From sequence record NC_041937.1: a stretch of 64,000 nt of DNA; one strand, given 5' to 3'. This DNA is from Escherichia phage V18. Shown here in pieces: positions 32,251-58,222 of the stretch. The translations under genes and the position numbers were made by a program. The notes below the pieces were generated by a model. The model did no database searches and was not told where the DNA came from. It saw only the letters and a program-made list of their open reading frames with translations. The first letter of the stretch is position 1. Each line of letters begins with the position of its first letter.

Positions 32251-32466
32251 ATGAAGATAGAAATATTTGGTGGAGCTGACAACACTCGTGGCCTGATTTA
32301 CCTTGAATTTGATGAATCATACCTGCCAGAGGTGTTAAATATAGACTCTGTTGCTGAGGCTTTGGGAGTAAACCCTAAAGAACTCCACTCTTGTGCTGAG
32401 ATCGATGGTTGGGAAGAGACCATGAACATTGATTTCAGTGAAGTGGAGGATGAACCGCTAGACTGA
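32251..32466 (+). CDS. hypothetical acidic protein
   Basis: 71 aa; RBS AGAGGAG; MKIEIFGG start; last plus-arm gene. Confidence 0.4.
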   Translation: MKIEIFGGADNTRGLIYLEFDESYLPEVLNIDSVAEALGVNPKELHSCAEIDGWEETMNIDFSEVEDEPLD

Positions 32467-32593
32467 CGCACAATTAGCTGCCCGGCTAAAGTGCTGGAAG
32501 CACCTATAACACATCTTTCAACTAAATTTCCTACCACCACAATCACTTACCTCCCGCACATGACTGTTTGCTTGTTTAGTGAGCAGTCATGCC

Positions 32594-32621
32594 TTGACAT
32601 TCTTGCCTATCCTGATAAAAT
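32594..32621 (+). promoter_or_regulatory. sigma70-like promoter (TTGACA-16-TAAAAT) firing into ORF-free DNA
   Basis: -35 at 32594-32599, -10 at 32616-32621; no credible ORF downstream. Confidence 0.5.
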
Positions 32622-33160
32622 TAAGTTCTTCTCTTTTCTTTTACCGAGTAATTCGGGTTTTCTGTTCTCTTCGGTTTGAAGGGGTATGGAGATACACCTG
32701 AGTGAACAGGGTGAACAACCGAACCATTAGCTATGGCATTAGCATGGCGAAGCGGACGGGTGACGAAAGAGGGGCCGGAGGACACCAGTCACTGCCATAT
32801 GATATATGGGTGATAACCTGAAGAGTCTGAATAAGTGTTTAAGTACCAGTCAGAGGAAAAGGTGAATGGTAGCCGAAGGGGGGAGGGGGGTTTCTTGTAT
32901 CTTTAATTTGTATATTATGTATACACTTGTAAACCAATCTAATCTGAATCTGTTTACCACACAAAGCGGATAGAGACAAATATTGCCTATTAAACTTGAA
33001 TTATTTATAGAAAATACCACAACACCCCTTAAGTCTTTGATTTACACACAAATCCTACAGATATTCAACCTCCATATTTAACATACTTGTAACATATTCC
33101 ATACTCTACCTGTCTGATCAATTTCCCAACTACATTCTCATATTTTCCCTGTCTGTACTA

Positions 33161-33356
33161 CCCCTGCCCCGCCGGGAGTCCCGTCATATCTGGCTTTCCA
33201 GCAAATATCACACCCACAAATATCATTGCCTGAAGAGGGTTTCATCCCATAATACCTGCCTTACCTGAAGAGCGCTTCATACACCACGTAAATTTTTTAA
33301 TTGACCTCCCCCTGCCCCTCCGGAGAGGTTGGCTTTTCCCACACAGACCTGAAGAG
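33161..33356. repeat. cluster of short direct repeats
   Basis: cccctgcccc-g/t-ccgg-g-ag at 33161 and 33308; cctgaagag at 33229, 33264, 33348. Confidence 0.5.
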
Positions 33357-33976
33357 TCAGCCAGAAATATCTGAATAGGCCCGATCTGCCCAGTCAGGAG
33401 CCAGTAGCGACTGGAGTGCTGCCAGGCGGACGGAATGGGAATACTTCTCATTCTTATAACAATTCTCAAATATCGAGGCAGTGAGAGAAATTAATAGGCC
33501 AGGCCGTTCACACAGTGGCACAACATTTGCAACCTATCCTGTGGGGATGAATGAGAATACCTATCATTGTGAGAACTATTATCATTACGGGCAATTTAAC
33601 ATAATACCCATTATGCGCACCACTGGCGATACATACAGGGATTGATACCATGAGTTACAGTTTACACACATAACAATTATATTTCTTACTATTTGTGTGG
33701 GATATAGTTAGCAGCCAATAGATTAGATATTGACCTGTAGACTTCCAACCGTCTGGACGTCTAAACGCCCACACACCAAGGGTTATACATACATCGCTGA
33801 ATGTAAACAGGGCCGCAAAAATGCTACCATACCAGTTTGTAAATTTTTCATGCAGCACTTGACAAAGAGGAGAAAAACTTGTCTGACACAATGTCACACA
33901 ATATGACACTTTACACTGGACACACTAGGCACAAAAAAAAAAAACTGCAGTGACTAGGTCACCCCTTCAGGTGTTT

Positions 33977-34171
33977 CTATGACATAATATAAAAGCAGGG
34001 CAACTATTACAAATCTAAAGTTGCCTTGCTTGTTATGTCATGATTAACTAAATACAAGGCAACTATGATCTGATTAATAGTTTGCAGACAAACTATCACG
34101 GGGGTGATGGTTACTGCTTTTATATTATGTCGCGACTCCGTCGCGCCATGCCATTCGTTTGCATAGTTGCC
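33977..34171. repeat. palindrome-flanked iteron cluster
   Basis: 19-bp inverted arms at 33980-33998 and 34114-34132; GGCAACTAT copies at 33999, 34048, 34087 (variant) and inverted at 34017, 34163. Confidence 0.55.
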
Positions 34172-34824
34172 TTATTGTTACAGATAAAATAATTGTATTG
34201 TTAATTATTTCTTATCTTTCTATTAGTCATCTAATGATTCCAGTTAGTATAGTAACGTATAGTAAACATTAGACGACTAAATATTTCTCTGTTTATGATA
34301 ACTCACCGTAATAATTTCGGACTGTTTACGAAAAATGTTGACACCCTGGCTGATTTATGTTATGCAATTTAAACGAATAATTATTTTATGCAGGTATTGA
34401 CTATTCCGTTATTCTATGGTTGGAATAAATACTTAGCAGGCTATAGAATGGTGAGCGTACGTAAATTCTGAGATCTGTCGGCTATAGTTATACCCGATTT
34501 TTCACGTAGAACACGCTTTCGATGCTGTGTAAGTGTATGACTTATAAAGATTTTTAGTTGTTGACAAGATATTGGAGATGTGCATCAGGTTAAAATTTGT
34601 GCAATAGCGGCATTACGTGCACTTTTGGGAGAGAAAACGGGTAAAAATGGACTTGCTACCACACAATGAAAAATTATGCAATAGCTATTTTACATGTATG
34701 TTTGTACAGTGCGGGCAATTGATGGCTCGTCAATTATTCCACTTGCCAGGTAGGGCCGTTTATGGTAGGGGGAAGAGCAGACAAAAAGAAAGGGGCCTAA
34801 GCCCTTGATAATTCAGTTAAAAAA

Positions 34825-35244
34825 TTATAATGATTCGTATATTTCAAAAATCCGATTTGCCAGGTCGTTACGGTAGCGGAATTTTTCCTCACGTTTGATC
34901 ATCAGATCTTTAAAGCCATATTCTTTAAGCACTTCATTAACTTTATGGCGGCACACCTTCATATTATCTTGAGCGTCACCAATAAACTTGTTGCTGTGGT
35001 GCATTGCTTTAATTTCTTCTTCCAGGACCAGGGCAACTACCCGGACCGGATCAAGCTGGTAGGCGGTAACATCGATGCGGCATTGTAGACGGCTTTTAAC
35101 GTCTGCCACCGGATATACTGCAACCTCTTCCCCGTCAACATTGACAATAACTAGTTTACCATCGATCTCGAATCCTTTCGCCGCCGGACCGTGACAAAAA
35201 GCGTTATCAAAGCTATATGCCGGATTATTAGATTTAATGTTCAT
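34825..35244 (-). CDS. hypothetical protein (last gene of minus arm)
   Basis: 139 aa; RBS AGAGGTAAA upstream. Confidence 0.4.
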   Translation of the reverse strand: MNIKSNNPAYSFDNAFCHGPAAKGFEIDGKLVIVNVDGEEVAVYPVADVKSRLQCRIDVTAYQLDPVRVVALVLEEEIKAMHHSNKFIGDAQDNMKVCRHKVNEVLKEYGFKDLMIKREEKFRYRNDLANRIFEIYESL

Positions 35245-53349: not shown

Positions 53350-53720
53350 TGATCGGTCTCCTTCTTGTTAAGTCTGAATACTGCAATAATAGCATTCCCA
53401 AGGTGCAGTGTCAAATCATTTCCAAGATACCACAGCATCCCACGGTCATCTTTAATGAAAGGGTAACAATCTGGTGCCTTCCAGACATTGTACACTTTGC
53501 CAACCTGAAAGAAATCAGGCCCTGTTGGGATTTTAGTTCCAGGCCACACTTGAGATACCTGAACACATTCCACCTGCATAATAACAGGGATAGTCATGGA
53601 TGTAAATGTTTTTGTTGGTTCTACTACCATAAAAGTCTCCTCTTTGCTCAACAACACTTCCATGTGTTGATAGTTTACATTAGTGACAATCACCCCAATT
53701 ACGACCACACAAGTATTCAC
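53346..53720 (-). CDS. small protein of a tandem paralog family
   Basis: VGKVYNVWKAPDCYPFIKDDRGMLWYLGND. Confidence 0.4.
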   Translation of the reverse strand: MNTCVVVIGVIVTNVNYQHMEVLLSKEETFMVVEPTKTFTSMTIPVIMQVECVQVSQVWPGTKIPTGPDFFQVGKVYNVWKAPDCYPFIKDDRGMLWYLGNDLTLHLGNAIIAVFRLNKKETDQ

Positions 53721-56457
53721 CTGTGATCTGGAACGGGACTCCCATCATTTTAGAAGCTTGCCAGAAGCAATGCACCACCATTTCACCCACAGGGCTCCAG
53801 ATAAGCTCAAGCTTTCCGTCATCGTTCAGGATAGGATCGTACACCGTGTTTCCGTCTCTGTCAACCACTTCGTTTCCGTCCTCATCCTTGCGTGCCTTTT
53901 TGTACTTATGACCGTCGAACACATGAAGTTTGGCCTCCTGCTCTGCCTTAAATGCTTCCAGTTCTTCGATTGTGTCGAAGGTGTACACAGTCTTATACTT
54001 CGGTGTGTCAGGGACTTGAAGCTGATATTCGTCATGGTAATAGATAATACGACGAACACCTTCATCGTACCACCCACGCTTCACCATTTGGTGGTGCATG
54101 AGTATCCCAACTAAGTCACACAGCGATGCACCACCATTCTGTTGGTATGCATTAAGTAAAGAGTGTTTAGATCGGGTCCAGATAGCATGACCATCAAAAG
54201 AGTAGATAAACTTCTTACCCGTTGCTTCCCAGAATTTCTCCAGATCTTCTTTACGCCCCTTAAGACCGGGGTTGGCATCCCAAAGTGCATCGATTACCCT
54301 TTGTCCCAACTCTGGAGAGATGTCCAGCATATCTGCAACTTTATCTTTTTGTGCCCCATACATAACCCCATACGTGATAGGTTTACCGTCGTTACGAGAC
54401 ACCTCTCTGCCTGCTACTTTTGTATATGCTTCAGCATTGTTTTGGTGTGCGTCCCCGTTACTTACAACATCATAATACAATCCGTTGTCGAACTCAAAGG
54501 CACCCCAAGCCCCGATAAGCTGCTCTAAGTTGGACCCGTCAATACCGATCTCAAAGTATCCTGGAGGAACACCCCACAGACTACGCATCTCTTTACCCAT
54601 GACCACTTTAGGAGATGGTTTAGGCATGTTTGCACAAATACTGTGTTTCTGTCGGGAAGTGTTTGTTAACCCAGAGCTTTTAGCAGGAAGCTTATGGTCA
54701 ATCTTCAAACGTGGATGATTAAGAAGACCAGTATCAACCTTATCCTCCTTGATTGGATCAAGTACCGATCTGCGGTTTCGCAATGATAACCACAAGACGA
54801 TATCTTTAGCCATCTCTCCGTTCAATTTTTCAAGATTCGGGCATAGGTGTCCAAACGTATCTTTCAGTTGCGGAGAAGTAATAAGTGCCCTAGCTTTTCT
54901 ACGTATTTTCCCGAATACTTCCTTTTTAATCCTTTCGGAGTTAGGAAAGCTTCGGAACTTGTGCACGGTTGTCTGGAACTTAGCATCAGTTTTGTTCCAG
55001 AAGTTGATAATCAGGTCACAATACTCTGACTCTAAAAGCTCGTCCATATATGCATATACTCGTGCATCAACATCTGCATCAGGTAGAGCTTTCTTCTTGC
55101 TGTCTTTAGTTACATCCTTAGTTCTCCACATTGTCGGAAGCCAACCAGCACTGATCAGGTATCGCTTAATGTCGTCCTGGTTGCTGATTTTCATAGGTAT
55201 CTTGCAGTCCGGCATTCGCTTCTGCTGTAGATCACTTATTGCCTGATCCATTAGCTCTTTAGGTAAAGGTTGTGGTGTGGAGGTGCCCTTAATATAGCCT
55301 CTCAAGAAATCAGCCATCTTATCGGGGTCTTTGCAGCCCATCTCTTCACACCATTTTATCCCCATCTTACTGACATCTCCTGTAGAGGTAAATGCTCGCT
55401 TAGGCGGGGCTTTGAACTCTAAAGCGCTCATATCTACAGGATAGCCAAGCTTATCTTTTAACCATTTCCAACCATTATTGGAGATTGTCCCATCTTGGTT
55501 AAACGGCTTTTCAGGGAACTTGGGCCGCTGAGACATTGACAGCTCTTTTAAAGGTAGTTGCGGTTCAACACGATCAGCGATTTCTTTCATCCACGCATCG
55601 CAACGGTCACGTAAAGCAATAGCTCCATCTATGTCAAAATACACACCCTGACGGGCCTGCAGCTCCATCAGGAAGTGCTGCAGCATGCCTCGGCGTAATG
55701 CGTTCTTCCAGGTGATCTTCTTGAACCCTTTCGGCTTCTCTTTGGCAGGATCGTACATAAAGTTCTGCATGTCAGATTTGCCGTAGAATACACCTTTTGA
55801 TTCCGCTACCAGCTCTTTCCAGAGCAGCTCCTGGATGATAACGTCCTCGAATACACGATCCACATACTTCCACAACGGAAGATCGCGCCAGTCATCAATT
55901 TGAACTTTCTGGTTACCAAGGGCGTAGCCCCATGCCATAAGGCCGTGAGGACCAACAGGTTGCATTTTCTTAGTAACCGGGTTGAATACAGCGTCCGGAC
56001 AACCTTTTGGTAAAGGGCGATCAGGCCACAAGATTCGGCTCATAGCCAACGTATCAAACAGGTTAACCTGGTGGTCGTTGATAGTCCCCATGCATTTAGG
56101 ATCACGGAACATATCAAAATGAATACCGGATAATCTTTCCATCAGCATAAAGTCATAACTGTAGCAGTTATGGCAGTTCAAAGCTGTTGGTGACCAGTCG
56201 GAATTGCCTGTAAGCCAACCTTCCAACTCCGAAAAATCTGCTATGCGAACTTCAAAATCTTTATAAAGAGTTTTCTTTGCCAGAATAAAGTTCTTAGCCT
56301 TTTCTATATCCTCCTCGGAGTAGTGTGTGCGGCTATTTAGAGGAAGGAACAGCATAAAACGGTTCTTATTCAGCTCTTTAAACAGACCGCAGTGATAATA
56401 AAGATCTGGGTCTTCCAGCAAACCGGATGACTCAAAATCGAACGACCACATACTCAT
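53680..56457 (-). CDS. DNA polymerase, family A (Pol I/T7-like) with 3'-5' exonuclease domain
   Basis: 925 aa; N-terminal FDFESSGL (Exo I), motif B-like KPITYGVMYGAQ, motif C YYHDEYQ. Confidence 0.9.
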   Translation of the reverse strand: MSMWSFDFESSGLLEDPDLYYHCGLFKELNKNRFMLFLPLNSRTHYSEEDIEKAKNFILAKKTLYKDFEVRIADFSELEGWLTGNSDWSPTALNCHNCYSYDFMLMERLSGIHFDMFRDPKCMGTINDHQVNLFDTLAMSRILWPDRPLPKGCPDAVFNPVTKKMQPVGPHGLMAWGYALGNQKVQIDDWRDLPLWKYVDRVFEDVIIQELLWKELVAESKGVFYGKSDMQNFMYDPAKEKPKGFKKITWKNALRRGMLQHFLMELQARQGVYFDIDGAIALRDRCDAWMKEIADRVEPQLPLKELSMSQRPKFPEKPFNQDGTISNNGWKWLKDKLGYPVDMSALEFKAPPKRAFTSTGDVSKMGIKWCEEMGCKDPDKMADFLRGYIKGTSTPQPLPKELMDQAISDLQQKRMPDCKIPMKISNQDDIKRYLISAGWLPTMWRTKDVTKDSKKKALPDADVDARVYAYMDELLESEYCDLIINFWNKTDAKFQTTVHKFRSFPNSERIKKEVFGKIRRKARALITSPQLKDTFGHLCPNLEKLNGEMAKDIVLWLSLRNRRSVLDPIKEDKVDTGLLNHPRLKIDHKLPAKSSGLTNTSRQKHSICANMPKPSPKVVMGKEMRSLWGVPPGYFEIGIDGSNLEQLIGAWGAFEFDNGLYYDVVSNGDAHQNNAEAYTKVAGREVSRNDGKPITYGVMYGAQKDKVADMLDISPELGQRVIDALWDANPGLKGRKEDLEKFWEATGKKFIYSFDGHAIWTRSKHSLLNAYQQNGGASLCDLVGILMHHQMVKRGWYDEGVRRIIYYHDEYQLQVPDTPKYKTVYTFDTIEELEAFKAEQEAKLHVFDGHKYKKARKDEDGNEVVDRDGNTVYDPILNDDGKLELIWSPVGEMVVHCFWQASKMMGVPFQITGEYLCGRNWGDCH

Positions 56458-56515: not shown

Positions 56516-58222
56516 TTAAAAAGGCGTTTCATCATCCTCAAAACCAGGGACCGGGTCAGAGGATGGATCATCGTACTGGAGGTCTTCCTGCGTGTCAACA
56601 GGCTTAACAGTAGGAGTTACAACCTTATCAGCCACAACCTTGCCCATAGGTGTTTCTACAACTGCATGCTCCTGATCCTCAAACATAGCCTGAGGTCTCC
56701 AAACAACCTCCCCGCCTTCTCCGTCTGTAAACATTTGCATTTCTTTGTCCCAGTACCAATTACTGGCATCATGGAACTTACCTGTGTGCGGGTCCATAAC
56801 CAAAGTGTCAGCAATACCTAGAGTTTTTGCTGGACGGTTTTTAAGACCTACCAGACGGACACGTCCACGAGAACGATCCACCATTTCTTCGGCCTCGACA
56901 CCTATGACTACCCAACTCAACTGTTCAAGCCCAGCCGATCCTCGCAAATTCTCTTTTCGCACAGGATACCAGAAAGGTAACGGGTTACCATCCTTGTCCT
57001 TAGGAGGCACAATCTCTGTACGTTTGAGGTGAGCGATCACCAAGATAAACACATTAAACTGCTTACAAAACGCAGCCAGTTGGGTCATAGCCATGTCCAG
57101 TTCTTTTCGCTCATCCTTAACATTAAGCCCTGAAATTACCATGGACAGGTGATCCAGCACAATATAACGACAATGGTACAGGCAAACCATTTGCTTAAGC
57201 TTGGTAATCAACTCGTCCACCGGAATAGACCCGAAATGTTTGAACACTTTGATTTTTCCAGCTTTTGCCCATGATTGGTGAATCTCTGCGTGTTCTTGAT
57301 CAGTTAAAAACTGGCTAGGATCTTCAACAAACTCTTTAACATCAAACCCTAACTGGTTTGCATACAAGGAGTTAATTGCTTCCTCTGGGTCCTCCTCAAG
57401 ATGGATCATGCATAGACGATCATCCTCTTCATAGTCATCAGCCTTCGGGCATGTCGGGTCCATTAGGTATCTTGCAATACAGTGTTCCAGTTTTTTAGCC
57501 ACGGTTGTTTTACCGCCCCCTGATGGCCCTGTAAGCATTACGAGTGTCCCTTTGTGCAAGCCTTTTAGCATTTTTTGCAGTTTTGGGAACTCTGCGCTGA
57601 TATCTACCCCGTTGGAAGTCTTTTTCCGCAAAGACTCGATAGAGAAGTCTTCTAAATCCGACACAGCATCAGGCACATATTTAACAGGATGCCGGAACAT
57701 GTTGACAATATCTTCCAGCTTTTTAGCCTTCAGCATGTCACGGATATCTTTTACACCGTCAGGATCGTTTACCTCACCGGGGTATTCTACGTGGTAAACG
57801 TTATCAGCCATCAAAAATGCTGCAATATTGTGCGTGGCCTCGACACCTTTAATGACGTGTTTTTGCTTCTCTACCTCGTTAGCTGCATCGTTATCCATTG
57901 CCAGCACAACTGTTCCATAGCTACGGATAAACTTCTCATTGTTTGCAAAAGTATCTACTGCGTTTGCACATCCACAGTTAATTCCAACAAAAGGTAGGCA
58001 AGGTTTTCCTGCCAGATCACCACCGTTGATAACTGCGTCGATCCCGTCCTGGACCTCTTTAGCCCACTGCTTCACCTTTGCCGGGGCTTTAGCGTTGGTG
58101 AGAATCCCTTTTACTTGTATCTGATATGCAGCCTGCCATGCTGCAATAACATCACCTTCTCCCTCACAAACGTTAATCTGCTTACGGTTGTTGGAAGATG
58201 CACACAGCTTTTGACCAAACAT
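56516..58222 (-). CDS. primase-helicase (T7 gp4-like): TOPRIM plus DnaB-family helicase
   Basis: 568 aa; TOPRIM VLAMDNDAANE; Walker A TGPSGGGKT; acidic C-terminus ending EDDETPF. Confidence 0.85.
   Translation of the reverse strand: MFGQKLCASSNNRKQINVCEGEGDVIAAWQAAYQIQVKGILTNAKAPAKVKQWAKEVQDGIDAVINGGDLAGKPCLPFVGINCGCANAVDTFANNEKFIRSYGTVVLAMDNDAANEVEKQKHVIKGVEATHNIAAFLMADNVYHVEYPGEVNDPDGVKDIRDMLKAKKLEDIVNMFRHPVKYVPDAVSDLEDFSIESLRKKTSNGVDISAEFPKLQKMLKGLHKGTLVMLTGPSGGGKTTVAKKLEHCIARYLMDPTCPKADDYEEDDRLCMIHLEEDPEEAINSLYANQLGFDVKEFVEDPSQFLTDQEHAEIHQSWAKAGKIKVFKHFGSIPVDELITKLKQMVCLYHCRYIVLDHLSMVISGLNVKDERKELDMAMTQLAAFCKQFNVFILVIAHLKRTEIVPPKDKDGNPLPFWYPVRKENLRGSAGLEQLSWVVIGVEAEEMVDRSRGRVRLVGLKNRPAKTLGIADTLVMDPHTGKFHDASNWYWDKEMQMFTDGEGGEVVWRPQAMFEDQEHAVVETPMGKVVADKVVTPTVKPVDTQEDLQYDDPSSDPVPGFEDDETPF

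Follow-up and report, generated by a model that had tools for sequence, protein, structure and literature searches.

A conserved long-range inverted repeat beside the terminal repeat of rV5-like phages: candidate genome-end signal or replication origin

What is the role of the inverted repeat, repeated short motifs and AT-rich tract that lie together in a large non-coding gap of an rV5-like phage genome? The window analysed here, a 64-kb stretch of the Vequintavirus Escherichia phage V18 (NC_041937.1), holds this module inside the largest gene-free stretch of the region (32467-34824). An earlier note took it for a candidate replication origin, with iterons and a DNA-unwinding element as its parts. 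Judged from its sequence, the combination of palindrome, motifs and AT-rich tract is a genuine, selected, non-coding cis-acting element, since its architecture, with perfect stems, recurs in nine diverged lineages. That the parts co-occur in a cis-element therefore stands, but the iteron and initiator components of the origin proposal do not. The module is essentially unannotated and carries no coding signal. Rfam 15 gave no hit at gathering score in the window and none at E<=1 in 32400-34900, and ARAGORN found neither a tRNA nor a tmRNA.

The module lies next to what appears to be a physical end of the genome. In phage EdH4 (MK327930.1) the last 459 nt are an exact copy of the first 459, and both map to 33425-33883 of the window; the bov10K2 record opens at the same base as EdH4 and the start of the direct terminal repeat (DTR). 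Terminal repeats of 458/459 bp have been published for EdH4, HdK5 and Gotham. By homology, the virion DNA of this rV5-like phage would be linear with 459-bp DTRs, its physical left end at 33425 and its right end formed by the second DTR copy, ending at 33883. The DTR is single-copy in the window, as in a concatemer or a circularised assembly. Many database records for this group begin at an arbitrary point, though the physical ends appear to be here, and in the rV5 genome paper no origin is defined and the genome is termed circularly permuted (PMC3606486). The module begins 98 nt into unique DNA past the DTR boundary, at the physical left end. The distance from the boundary to the left arm, 98 nt here, is about 190-370 nt in other vequintaviruses. 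Phapecoctavirus Mt1B1_P17, from a different subfamily, has an exact 328-bp DTR with the equivalent inverted repeat 197 nt further on, and in the phi92-like PHB05 an arm lies 216 nt from the end of the record. This end of the genome also carries sigma70-driven small early genes. From the DTR onwards the features are (window coordinates, strand where assigned):

33425-33883: equivalent of the 459-bp DTR, placed by homology to phages with defined ends
33884-33932, plus strand: remnant of a short-repeat array (TGACACAATG TCACACAATA TGACAC...), beginning exactly at the DTR boundary, with a 10-11-nt period
33933-33978: window-specific deletion scar, made up of an A12 run at 33933-33944, then the GTGAC-TAG-GTCAC hairpin at 33950-33962, and a linker
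33981-33998, plus strand: left arm of the inverted repeat, GACATAATATAAAAGCAG, whose outer 9 nt repeat the TGACAYAAT motif of the DTR boundary
33993-34005 with 34019-34031: hairpin 1, extendable to 33979-34041
33999-34113: structured spacer of 115 nt, with GGCAACTAT copies, hairpins, a palindrome and a G-run
34078-34095: spacer palindrome, TAGTTTG-CAGA-CAAACTA
34091-34112: hairpin AACTATCAC-GGGG-GTGATGGTT, with the conserved G-run and GGTTA directly before the right arm
34114-34131, plus strand: right arm, CTGCTTTTATATTATGTC, complement of the left arm
34132-34148, plus strand: GC-rich box R, GCGACTCCGTCGCGCCA, directly after the right arm
34145-34164, plus strand: right copy of the flanking direct repeat GCCATGCCATTCGTTTGCAT, whose left copy is deleted in this window
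34145-34173, plus strand: that right flanking copy together with an inverted GGCAACTAT copy (34163-34171)
34158-34330, plus strand: AT-rich tract, T-biased on this strand

The central feature is the inverted repeat. It had been described as 19 bp long with 18 of 19 positions complementary; it is real and perfect over 18 bp (18/18, with 115 nt between the arms), and the nineteenth pair, T33980/G34132, is a mismatch. A scan of the 64-kb window for perfect inverted repeats with arms of 13 nt or more and 40-200 nt between them finds this one alone, where about 0.0001-0.004 would be expected by chance; in six diverged relative loci of 5-8 kb the scan likewise finds a single such repeat in each. The stem stops sharply at GTC, beside a conserved box (GCTCCCTMCGGTCGCGCC) or a covarying hairpin. 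A second inverted repeat, AAGGCAACTATG / CATAGTTGCCTT, crosses the first, and short motifs in both orientations permit several mutually exclusive pairings. The segment 33975-34185 folds far better than its shuffles on both strands (z -7.3 and -7.2). Folding does not assign a strand: in 10 of 12 cases the plus strand folds at the lower energy, an effect of its G>C composition, but shuffle z-scores split 6/6, and the preference is gone once composition is controlled.

The arms share their motif with the DTR boundary. Six matches to TGACAYAMT with at most one mismatch fall in 33884-34132, where the density over the whole window predicts 0.24, a local enrichment of about 25-fold; both arms are among the six, in inverted orientation. 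Only a remnant of the array that starts at the boundary is left in the window; relatives carry three to five such units and then up to about 12 AACTGTTTACR units (alignment of seven vequintaviruses). Phapecoctavirus has its own analogue of the boundary motif, GCTAATNNT, in five copies.

The 9-mers of the spacer fared less well than the stem. Five copies of GGCAACTAT had been counted, a generous figure: three are exact (33999 and 34058 on the plus strand, 34163 on the minus strand), the minus-strand copy at 34017 has one mismatch and is perfect in other vequintaviruses, and the fifth has two. The copy placed at 34048 is truly at 34058, a slip of 10 nt, and the variant at 34087 (ACAAACTAT) is the two-mismatch copy and forms half of the local palindrome TAGTTTG-CAGA-CAAACTA. 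The exact copies are the only three in 64 kb, where about 0.5 would be expected, and all fall within 173 nt. Their conservation in related phages is limited: one other lineage shares the 9-mer in part and the others lack it. What is conserved, in place of GGCAACTAT, is the long stem together with the G-run, GC box and T-rich tract. The outer pair that was thought to flank the palindrome (33950 and 34101) dissolves into a local hairpin, GTGAC-TAG-GTCAC, and a 7-nt match, GGGGTGA, with no conserved pairing; the segment that contains it is deleted in EdH4 and in an IMG/VR relative (L008), and in another relative (L040) a module related to it sits within the spacer instead. The surrounding scar region measures 26-85 nt in the window against 140-257 nt in relatives. 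A terminator-like call on the minus strand at the scar exists only through the A12 run. The AT-rich stretch beside the repeats, by comparison, is as described: 34158-34317 has 25% GC, the lowest of any 160 nt in the window, and only 0.02% of window stretches are as low in GC as 34172-34331.

The same architecture is found in nine diverged lineages of the Vequintavirinae and Stephanstirmvirinae. Protein-anchored scans gave 3 loci from IMG/VR and 8 from metagenome contigs, and a box R DNA pattern together with blastn using the Phapecoctavirus end yielded more loci than these scans. The shared layout consists of a perfect 15-18-bp stem, a 70-188 nt spacer and a G-run before the right arm, followed 3' of that arm by a GC-rich box or a covarying hairpin and then a T/AT-rich tract. 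The box reads GCTCCCTMCGGTCGCGCC in other Vequintavirinae-type lineages, and in Stephanstirmvirinae a covarying hairpin with a TGTCCGG-type loop takes its place. The nine lineages have nine different arm sequences, and all 150 of 150 stem pairs are Watson-Crick, with zero G.T/G.U. Among the first seven lineages more than one pair type occurs at 16 of 18 positions, and pairing the arms of one lineage with those of another gives just 49% complementarity. Spacer length varies inside lineages as well (82/129, 138/188 and 115/149). Unphased variation over 70-188 nt implies no helical phasing and favours a base-paired stem in single-stranded nucleic acid, and the lack of G.T/G.U pairs fits DNA better than RNA.

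Other parts of the layout are also retained. In nearly all lineages the spacer folds better than its shuffled versions, whichever strand is taken, and the inner hairpins covary. Each of the nine lineages has 200 AT/T-rich nt after the element, with a GC content of 19-38% where the loci have 33-45%. Of 118 records from the genus, 108 share a core of 95-99% identity, and the arms are invariant while their flanks diverge by 5-10%. Spacers of Stephanstirmvirinae contain a conserved dyad, GCTTGCAA-N3-TTGCAAGC. No spacer of any lineage contains an IHF consensus, GATC clustering in the spacers is not conserved, and the lineages do not share a promoter set at one constant interval before the left arm. 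The FV3 record is missing the whole inverted-repeat element, which, unless FV3 is a cloning or assembly artefact, was evidently removed by recombination between the two GCCATGCCATTCGTTTGCAT copies. The window, for its part, is without the repeat array that relatives carry. Neither part is thus strictly essential, with the same proviso for FV3.

The position beside the DTR opens a reading as a DTR-processing or packaging signal, which is as good as the origin reading or better; the sequence is compatible with either. We give the packaging reading a probability of roughly one in three (about 0.35). All short-DTR phages must cut and re-synthesise a single repeat at each concatemer junction, and the module would work together with the DTR during maturation and packaging of the replicated concatemers. 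The short motif (TGACAYAAT), which starts at the DTR boundary and recurs inverted as the outer part of both 18-bp arms, would be the target of a lineage-specific protein, most plausibly the recognition subunit of terminase or some other factor that binds genome ends. When the AT-rich tract opens or a strand is displaced, the complementary arms could pair and close a 150-220-nt stem-loop whose base abuts the conserved GC-rich box. This hairpin-plus-box would then mark or assist cutting and re-synthesis of the single repeat at each concatemer junction. Protein binding, formation of the stem in single-stranded DNA and a role in end processing or packaging rather than in replication initiation are what we infer here.

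Several observations point to this packaging reading: the module sits next to the DTR also in Mt1B1_P17 and PHB05; the stems are under selection (150/150 pairs, nine arm sequences); the arm motif matches the boundary motif, with the same logic for GCTAATNNT in Phapecoctavirus; the core is kept in 108 of 118 records against DNA just outside both DTR boundaries that is hypervariable within the genus; and there are precedents near the terminal repeats of T7 and T5. Against it, the linkage to the DTR is confounded by the general synteny of these phages, the conserved AT/T-rich tract is explained more naturally as an unwinding element of an origin, T7 ends have no comparable inverted repeat, and no IHF site lies between the arms. 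Nor does it favour this reading that FV3, unless an artefact, does without the inverted repeat and this window without the array. No terminase domain was found in the ten largest ORFs of the window, and there is no terminase gene within 30 kb, in contrast to lambda, P22 and T7. A more specific version, which we regard as improbable, makes the element a rolling-hairpin-like device that regenerates the terminal repeat. A nick at the junction of stem and box (...GTC|GC...) would free a 3' end carrying the right arm, which could fold onto the left arm and prime leftward synthesis through the short-repeat array and the single DTR, so that a second DTR copy is made before the terminase cut. Such a device would explain complementarity to the last base, the variable loop and the abutting box, as well as the fixed side relative to the DTR and the easily melted AT tract nearby.

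The origin proposal, in amended form, is possible though on balance unlikely. In this form the AT/T-rich tract would be a DNA-unwinding element, the stem-loop, G-run and GC box would nucleate melting, R-loop or primer formation or the loading of helicase and primase, and the repeated motifs would bind a phage or host factor; initiation would be transcription- or structure-primed in the manner of T7 or T4, neither of the lambda iteron type nor protein-primed. It draws on the most AT-rich 160 nt of the window directly adjoining the element, on the AT/T-rich tract found after it in nine of nine lineages, on the site lying in the largest gene-free stretch (32467-34824) and on motifs repeated in both orientations. 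The replisome genes in the window are T7-like (a family-A DNA polymerase with a DnaB-like helicase beside it; see also PMC3606486), which agrees with it, and a related lineage has three perfect DnaA boxes nearby. The T7 secondary-origin promoters phiOL and phiOR sit just inside both terminal repeats. Loss of the element in FV3 would be easier to accept if it were one of several origins. The classical parts are the difficulty. The GGCAACTAT 9-mers, which the earlier note called iterons, are lineage-specific, lie in orientations +,-,+,- and have start-to-start distances of 18, 41 and 105 nt, and do not form the three or more direct repeats of about 17-22 bp, regular and helically phased, that define classical iterons. 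Protein priming is contradicted by ends that are direct 459-bp repeats rather than inverted ones and by a polymerase of family A. For an initiator-dependent origin we found no initiator gene, DnaA box or IHF site: the flanking ORFs have no Pfam domain and only PHROGs of unknown function, and the non-coding region 32467-34824 has no DnaA box, although unknown small proteins could still serve. The cumulative GC skew is maximal at the module and two gene arms converge there, an arrangement that looks like a terminus and not an origin, as replication forks running in the direction of transcription would terminate at this site instead of leaving it; it is confounded by transcription, to which the rV5 authors attributed the skew change (PMC3606486). 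T5 origins, moreover, are reported near the centre of the molecule and not in its analogous terminal repeat-rich region.

Convergent transcription meeting at the site also suits an element that acts as RNA, either a structured non-coding RNA closed by the long stem or a composite bidirectional terminator or insulator between the convergent gene arms and the DTR, in which the last inner hairpin on each strand is followed by a U-rich arm. Both strands fold strongly (z about -7) and the inner hairpins covary; on the plus strand the hairpin at 34091-34112 is followed by CTGCTTTTATATT, called terminator-like, and the same U-rich arm comes after hairpin 1 on the minus strand. An equivalent geometry of hairpin and U-tract is seen in some lineages (L032 and L041), not in all. 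There is a TTGACA box at the right end of the DTR, and a promoter close to consensus, at 32594, is oriented toward this part of the window. We consider an RNA role unlikely, given that the 150 stem pairs include 0 G.U, the strand preference is lost under composition control, the several mutually exclusive pairings are atypical of a defined RNA fold, and the long stem is followed by a GC box and not by a U-tract. In addition, no promoter keeps a conserved distance from the left arm, the region has no Rfam match at E<=1, and the variable-length repeat array would fall in the 5' part of the transcript.

It is likewise doubtful that the module serves neither packaging nor initiation but is a platform of double-stranded DNA to which proteins bind at the leading end of the genome, such as an injection-stop or membrane-anchoring signal (T5 iss-like), a protection of the end from RecBCD or an operator array for an early regulator. 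Lineage-specific motifs repeated directly and inverted, arms invariant within a genus whose flanks have diverged by 5-10%, the dyad in Stephanstirmvirinae spacers, the small early genes at this end and the similar conserved untranslated region at the terminal-repeat boundary of T5 (repeat region 3) would all suit such a platform. Unphased, variable arm spacing and full-length perfect complementarity exceed the needs of a protein site, however; paired DnaA boxes are absent from the window, the model for T5 is no more than a hypothesis itself, and no candidate binding protein was found. ORF164, the highly conserved neighbour, was considered as the binder and set aside: it has no Pfam or PDB match, belongs to a PHROG of unknown function and gives a single-sequence AlphaFold pLDDT of 48. 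That the module is mobile or switchable, whether as a MITE-like insertion or as an 'inverton' able to flip, is very improbable and largely refuted. Perfect terminal-type inverted repeats of 15-18 bp around 70-188 nt, flanking direct repeats of 20-30 nt and FV3 as an 'empty site' with one repeat copy resemble such elements. Yet wherever the DTR and ORF164 were mapped, the element keeps the same place and direction with respect to them, with the sequences themselves diverged, which indicates vertical inheritance; there is one copy per genome window or locus, no target-site duplication abuts the arms, and no recombinase or transposase is nearby. As to an inverton, the 211-nt core is collinear in a single piece in 116 of 118 records with no inverted form seen, and the G-run adjoins the right arm in every lineage.

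Myoviruses of the rV5-like and phAPEC8/phi92-like kinds are widely isolated, and many are described with therapy in view. In their literature we found no description of origin or packaging signals, and for the Septuagintavirus lineage neither transcriptome nor termini data. A cis-element that is compact and under strong selection can now be placed beside the terminal repeat at a fixed position in both subfamilies. Whichever function it has, it bears on how non-T7 short-DTR phages recognise their ends and regenerate the repeat, and in phage engineering or the design of transducible cargo the segment should probably be kept intact or could be exploited. Hairpin-primed duplication of the DTR, if true, would be new for tailed phages and common to two subfamilies of large myoviruses.

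Among known systems, the concatemer junction of T7 and T3 offers a parallel. Short-repeat arrays flank the terminal repeat of T7. As in these phages, a short DTR is accompanied here by arrays of 7-12-nt repeats that start from the boundary (a remnant in the window, TGACAYAATR and AACTGTTTACR arrays in relatives), non-coding cis-signals lie a few hundred bp inside the repeat, and a single junction repeat has to be duplicated. A passage in PMC4281155, which cites Chung & Hinkle 1990, mentions hairpin DNA containing the terminal repeat in T7 infection. A search of about 800-900 bp at each end of T7 gave no perfect long-range inverted repeat, which makes T7 only a loose analogue. T7 also has its own RNA polymerase and promoters, a pause site at the junction and adjacent terminase genes, none of which is seen here; the large ORFs of the window include no phage RNA polymerase, and there is no sequence similarity to the T7 junction.

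Like lambda cosB and SPP1 pacL-pacR, the module has copies of a putative recognition motif in both orientations within about 50-300 bp of the cut, on the side of the first genes, and six TGACAYAMT-type sites in 249 nt from the DTR boundary make a cosB-like set of repeats, with terminase binding putative. Lambda needs an IHF bend between inverted R sites, and no IHF consensus occurs here; its R sites are similar but not perfectly complementary, whereas the arms described here are perfect over 15-18 bp. The terminase genes of lambda and SPP1 are adjacent, which is not so in this genome. In T5, repeat region 3 is a conserved untranslated region with inverted repeats and palindromes that straddles the terminal-repeat boundary (bioRxiv 10.1101/866236). 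Both systems have a large untranslated region with direct and spaced inverted repeats and palindromes, conserved above the neighbouring ORFs. The T5 terminal repeat is 10 kb long, and its IRD'-spacer-IRC' unit has a fixed 52-bp spacer and paired DnaA boxes; by contrast, DnaA boxes are absent from the non-coding region here and spacer length ranges over 70-188 nt, and the T5 function is itself hypothetical.

Classical origins (lambda ori, plasmid oriV and the SV40 and HSV ori) resemble the module in having motifs and/or a palindrome beside an AT-rich unwinding tract, but the regular 17-22-bp iterons and the linked initiator are absent here, and skew and gene orientation are terminus-like. With arms 70-188 nt apart, the repeat is too widely spaced for ordinary cruciform extrusion. 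Hairpin signals of single-stranded DNA include ssi or primosome assembly sites, Frpo-type ssDNA promoters, CTX-phi attP and the parvovirus hairpin with its nick site. These signals act in naturally single-stranded genomes or transfer intermediates, and no link to an HUH nuclease, Xer or a primosome is evident here, but they share with the present element a long stem that would form only in single-stranded DNA, pairing that is kept while the sequence varies, and a conserved box that abuts the stem.

The inverted repeat and its adjoining G-run, GC box and AT-rich tract lie where two gene arms converge, within ~2.36 kb (32467-34824) that contain no genes. For the 1.4 kb around this element, matches at 90-96% identity come from 118 phage records, each an rV5-like myovirus of the genus Vequintavirus. 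GC skew changes sign at the locus, and thus cumulative skew is maximal there. The rV5 genome paper saw the same change, attributed it to transcription orientation and left the origin undefined (PMC3606486). The features considered here (DTR, direct terminal repeat) are:

ends at 32466, plus strand: gene arm that includes DNA ligase and ribonucleotide reductase genes
32594-32621, directed toward the DTR: near-consensus sigma70 promoter (TTGACA-16-TAAAAT with TG)
33367-33416: hypervariable DTR flank, 66% column identity
33884-33966: hypervariable DTR flank, 50-77% column identity
ends at 34825, minus strand: gene arm that includes DNA methylase and PIF1 helicase genes, ending at the homologue of rV5 ORF164
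34825-35244, minus strand: ORF164 homologue, 139 aa (phrog_12277, a PHROG of unknown function)
53680-56457, minus arm: family-A DNA polymerase
56516-58222, minus arm: DnaB-like helicase

No terminase domain was found in the ten largest ORFs of the 64-kb window. Eighteen records named "Campylobacter phage" (MG0656xx, e.g. locus L025) share 90-96% identity with E. coli vequintaviruses over the element region; at least one bears an UNVERIFIED mark, and these genomes are probably mislabelled or contaminants.

The inverted repeat described in the earlier note is confirmed as 18/18 perfect (33981-33998 and 34114-34131, spacer 115 nt). It is the sole perfect inverted repeat of >=13 nt with a spacer of 40-200 nt in the 64 kb, where chance would give ~0.0001-0.004. 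The AT-rich tract also held up: at 25% GC, no other 160-nt stretch of the window is richer in AT. Of the five proposed copies of the 9-mer GGCAACTAT, three are exact (33999, 34058 and, inverted, 34163, all within 173 nt) and one has a single mismatch (34017), while the variant at 34087 is weak; the copy placed at 34048 truly lies at 34058. The "outer pair" proves to be a local hairpin that falls outside the element, because some relatives lack that segment. In their outer 9 nt the arms carry a motif of a lineage-specific family, which is also repeated, in direct orientation, starting at the DTR boundary (TGACAYAMT, 6 matches in 249 nt versus 0.24 expected); the Phapecoctavirus counterpart, GCTAATNNT, is present in five copies.

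Identity over a 211-nt core is 95-99% for 108 of the 118 records. Ten others, including rV5-derived typing phage 5, match over a longer span at just 80-90%; the lower match of rV5 itself (L003; L numbers denote relative loci compared) is caused by a 33-nt spacer insertion. Since the core is one collinear piece in 116/118 records, the enclosed segment is never found inverted among them, and an inverton was rejected; a MITE was likewise ruled out. Three search routes, through the adjacent ORF164 gene, through a DNA pattern based on the conserved box and through a blastn query with a Phapecoctavirus end, recovered an equivalent element in eight further lineages, each with a different arm sequence and all with perfect complementarity.

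Arm sequences of the element by lineage
Vequintavirus (window): GACATAATATAAAAGCAG
L009/L018/L040: GACATAATAACGCTGAG
A7_1/W70 (Septuagintavirus): GACACTATAAAACGAG
L021/L031: GACACAATAACGCAGTAG
L032: GACCAAATAGCAAGAATG
L041: GACCAATAGAAAAAGGG
Phapecoctavirus: GCTAATAATAAGCCA
Justusliebigvirus PHB05: GCTAATAATAACGCA
Klebsiella phage KP2025: TGCTAATAATAACACA

Over the nine lineages, all 150 stem pairs are Watson-Crick, with zero wobble; the pair type varies among the first seven lineages at 16 of 18 stem positions, and arms paired across lineages are a mere 49% complementary. The spacer ranges from 70 to 188 nt and differs even within lineages (82/129, 138/188, 115/149), so helical phasing is not conserved. 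Shared among lineages are a G-run, in many cases with GGTTA or GTGTAGT after it, directly 5' of the right arm, and directly 3' of that arm a GC box conserved in sequence (GCTCCCTMCGGTCGCGCC; window version GCGACTCCGTCGCGCCA), which in Stephanstirmvirinae is replaced by a covarying hairpin (CGCTATG/CATAGCG, GCTACG/CGTAGC, GCCTATG/CATAGGC, GCCTACG/CGTAGGC). An AT-rich tract, T-biased on the plus strand, adjoins the stem in 9/9 lineages, and direct repeats flank the whole unit in the vequintavirus and L009-type lineages. The ORF164 homologue adjoins the module in the Vequintavirus and Phapecoctavirus loci examined; its protein is 91-93% identical between Vequintavirinae and Stephanstirmvirinae, where the neighbouring DNA is unalignable. 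Pfam and PDB gave no match for this protein, and a single-sequence AlphaFold model is poor (pLDDT 48).

A mini-module (GGCTATGCC, then AGGTG-hairpin-CCCC...GGG) sits left of the left arm in vequintaviruses (window 33945-33978) and inside the spacer in L040, and the rV5-type insertion also contains GGCTATGCC, which suggests that mini-modules are shuffled into and out of the stem-loop. Two further boxes (34482-34504 and 34541-34566; CTATAGTTATACCCGATTTTTCA and TTATAAAGATTT(T/A)TAGTTGTTGACA) are near-identical in the diverged L009 lineage amid unalignable DNA. Plus-strand TTGACA boxes at 34337, 34396 and 34561 have no downstream ORF and are directed against the minus-strand early genes.

The element is real, selected and non-coding. 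Because the spacer is variable and unphased and complementarity is perfect over the full length, the sequences point to pairing of the arms into a stem within single-stranded nucleic acid; DNA would fit better than RNA, given the zero G.U/G.T pairs. The segment 33975-34185 folds far better than shuffles on both strands (z about -7), and folding with composition controlled gives no strand assignment. An RNA or terminator role is possible but unlikely in our view. Rfam returned no family match to the element even at E<=1, and there is no tRNA or tmRNA in it. The membership of the outer 9 nt in a repeated motif family and the invariance of the arms within a genus argue that a protein may also read the arms.

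The position of the element relative to the genome ends bears on how its function is read. A DTR of 458/459 bp has been reported for vequintaviruses EdH4, HdK5 and Gotham, in conflict with the rV5 paper, which calls the genome circularly permuted (PMC3606486). The first 459 nt of EdH4 equal its last 459 nt exactly and correspond to window 33425-33883, and the bov10K2 record opens at the same nucleotide; these matches would place the virion left end at 33425, with the reported feature starting 67-98 nt into unique DNA. Mt1B1_P17 (Phapecoctavirus) has an exact 328-bp DTR followed 197 nt on by the inverted repeat, so two subfamilies place the element alike with respect to the DTR. The least conserved DNA of the region lies just outside both DTR boundaries; the DTR and palindrome core are conserved. 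In other vequintaviruses a variable array directly follows the DTR, with 3-5 TGACAYAATR units (10-11-nt period, the first exactly at the boundary) and then up to ~12 AACTGTTTACR units. These arrays differ greatly in length among relatives; the window has mostly lost its array, and an A12 run (33933-33944) fills the deletion.

Across the DTR, a purine-rich non-coding stretch (~32617-32916) after the 32594 promoter is 98.6-99.7% identical in most of ten vequintavirus loci compared and 95.9% in the two most divergent. It is better conserved than the DTR and the DTR's other neighbours, and weakly kept in the L009/L040 lineage. The stretch has no Rfam match, and its fold z-score is just -0.9. An unannotated RNA and a protein platform are both conceivable. 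In L009 (5839-5886) and L018, the area corresponding to the terminal-repeat region holds three perfect DnaA boxes (TTATCCACA), all inside 40 nt; the window has no counterpart.

We tentatively favour a role in genome-end processing and packaging (probability about 0.35), in which the module, acting together with the DTR, would provide both a docking site and a structural signal for concatemer cutting and regeneration of the single junction repeat. In the FV3 record (L024, NC_019517.1; ~1680-1720) the entire inverted-repeat element is missing, deleted between the flanking direct repeats, of which a single hybrid copy, GCCATG(A)CATTCGTTTGCAT, links the repeat array straight to AGTTGCCTTATTG. The loss reflects either a deletion that is natural and viable or an artefact of cloning or assembly; unless FV3 is such an artefact, the parts are redundant or dispensable, FV3 lacking the element and the window the array. 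Both losses urge caution toward every reading as an essential signal.

The main rival, which we consider possible though somewhat less probable, is a replication origin primed through transcription or structure. In its favour are the AT tract, which is conserved, and a precedent in T7, where phiOL and phiOR lie just inside the terminal repeats; against it, skew and gene orientation are terminus-like, and no initiator was found at the window locus. The origin types first proposed are rejected: protein priming is contradicted by genome ends made of direct repeats and by a family-A polymerase with a DnaB-like helicase adjacent, and a classical iteron origin by GGCAACTAT, which is short, irregularly spaced, mixed in orientation and lineage-specific, and by the lack of an initiator gene and of DnaA boxes and IHF sites at the locus. 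Another protein platform, like the proposed T5 injection-stop region (bioRxiv 10.1101/866236), is likewise possible but unlikely.

In the records inspected the element is essentially unannotated, with just occasional "terminator" or "repeat_region" features. Cis-signals beside terminal repeats are a known kind of element; the architecture common to Vequintavirinae and Stephanstirmvirinae, a long stem of perfect covariation with a free loop, G-run, abutting GC box and AT tract, appears to be undescribed so far.
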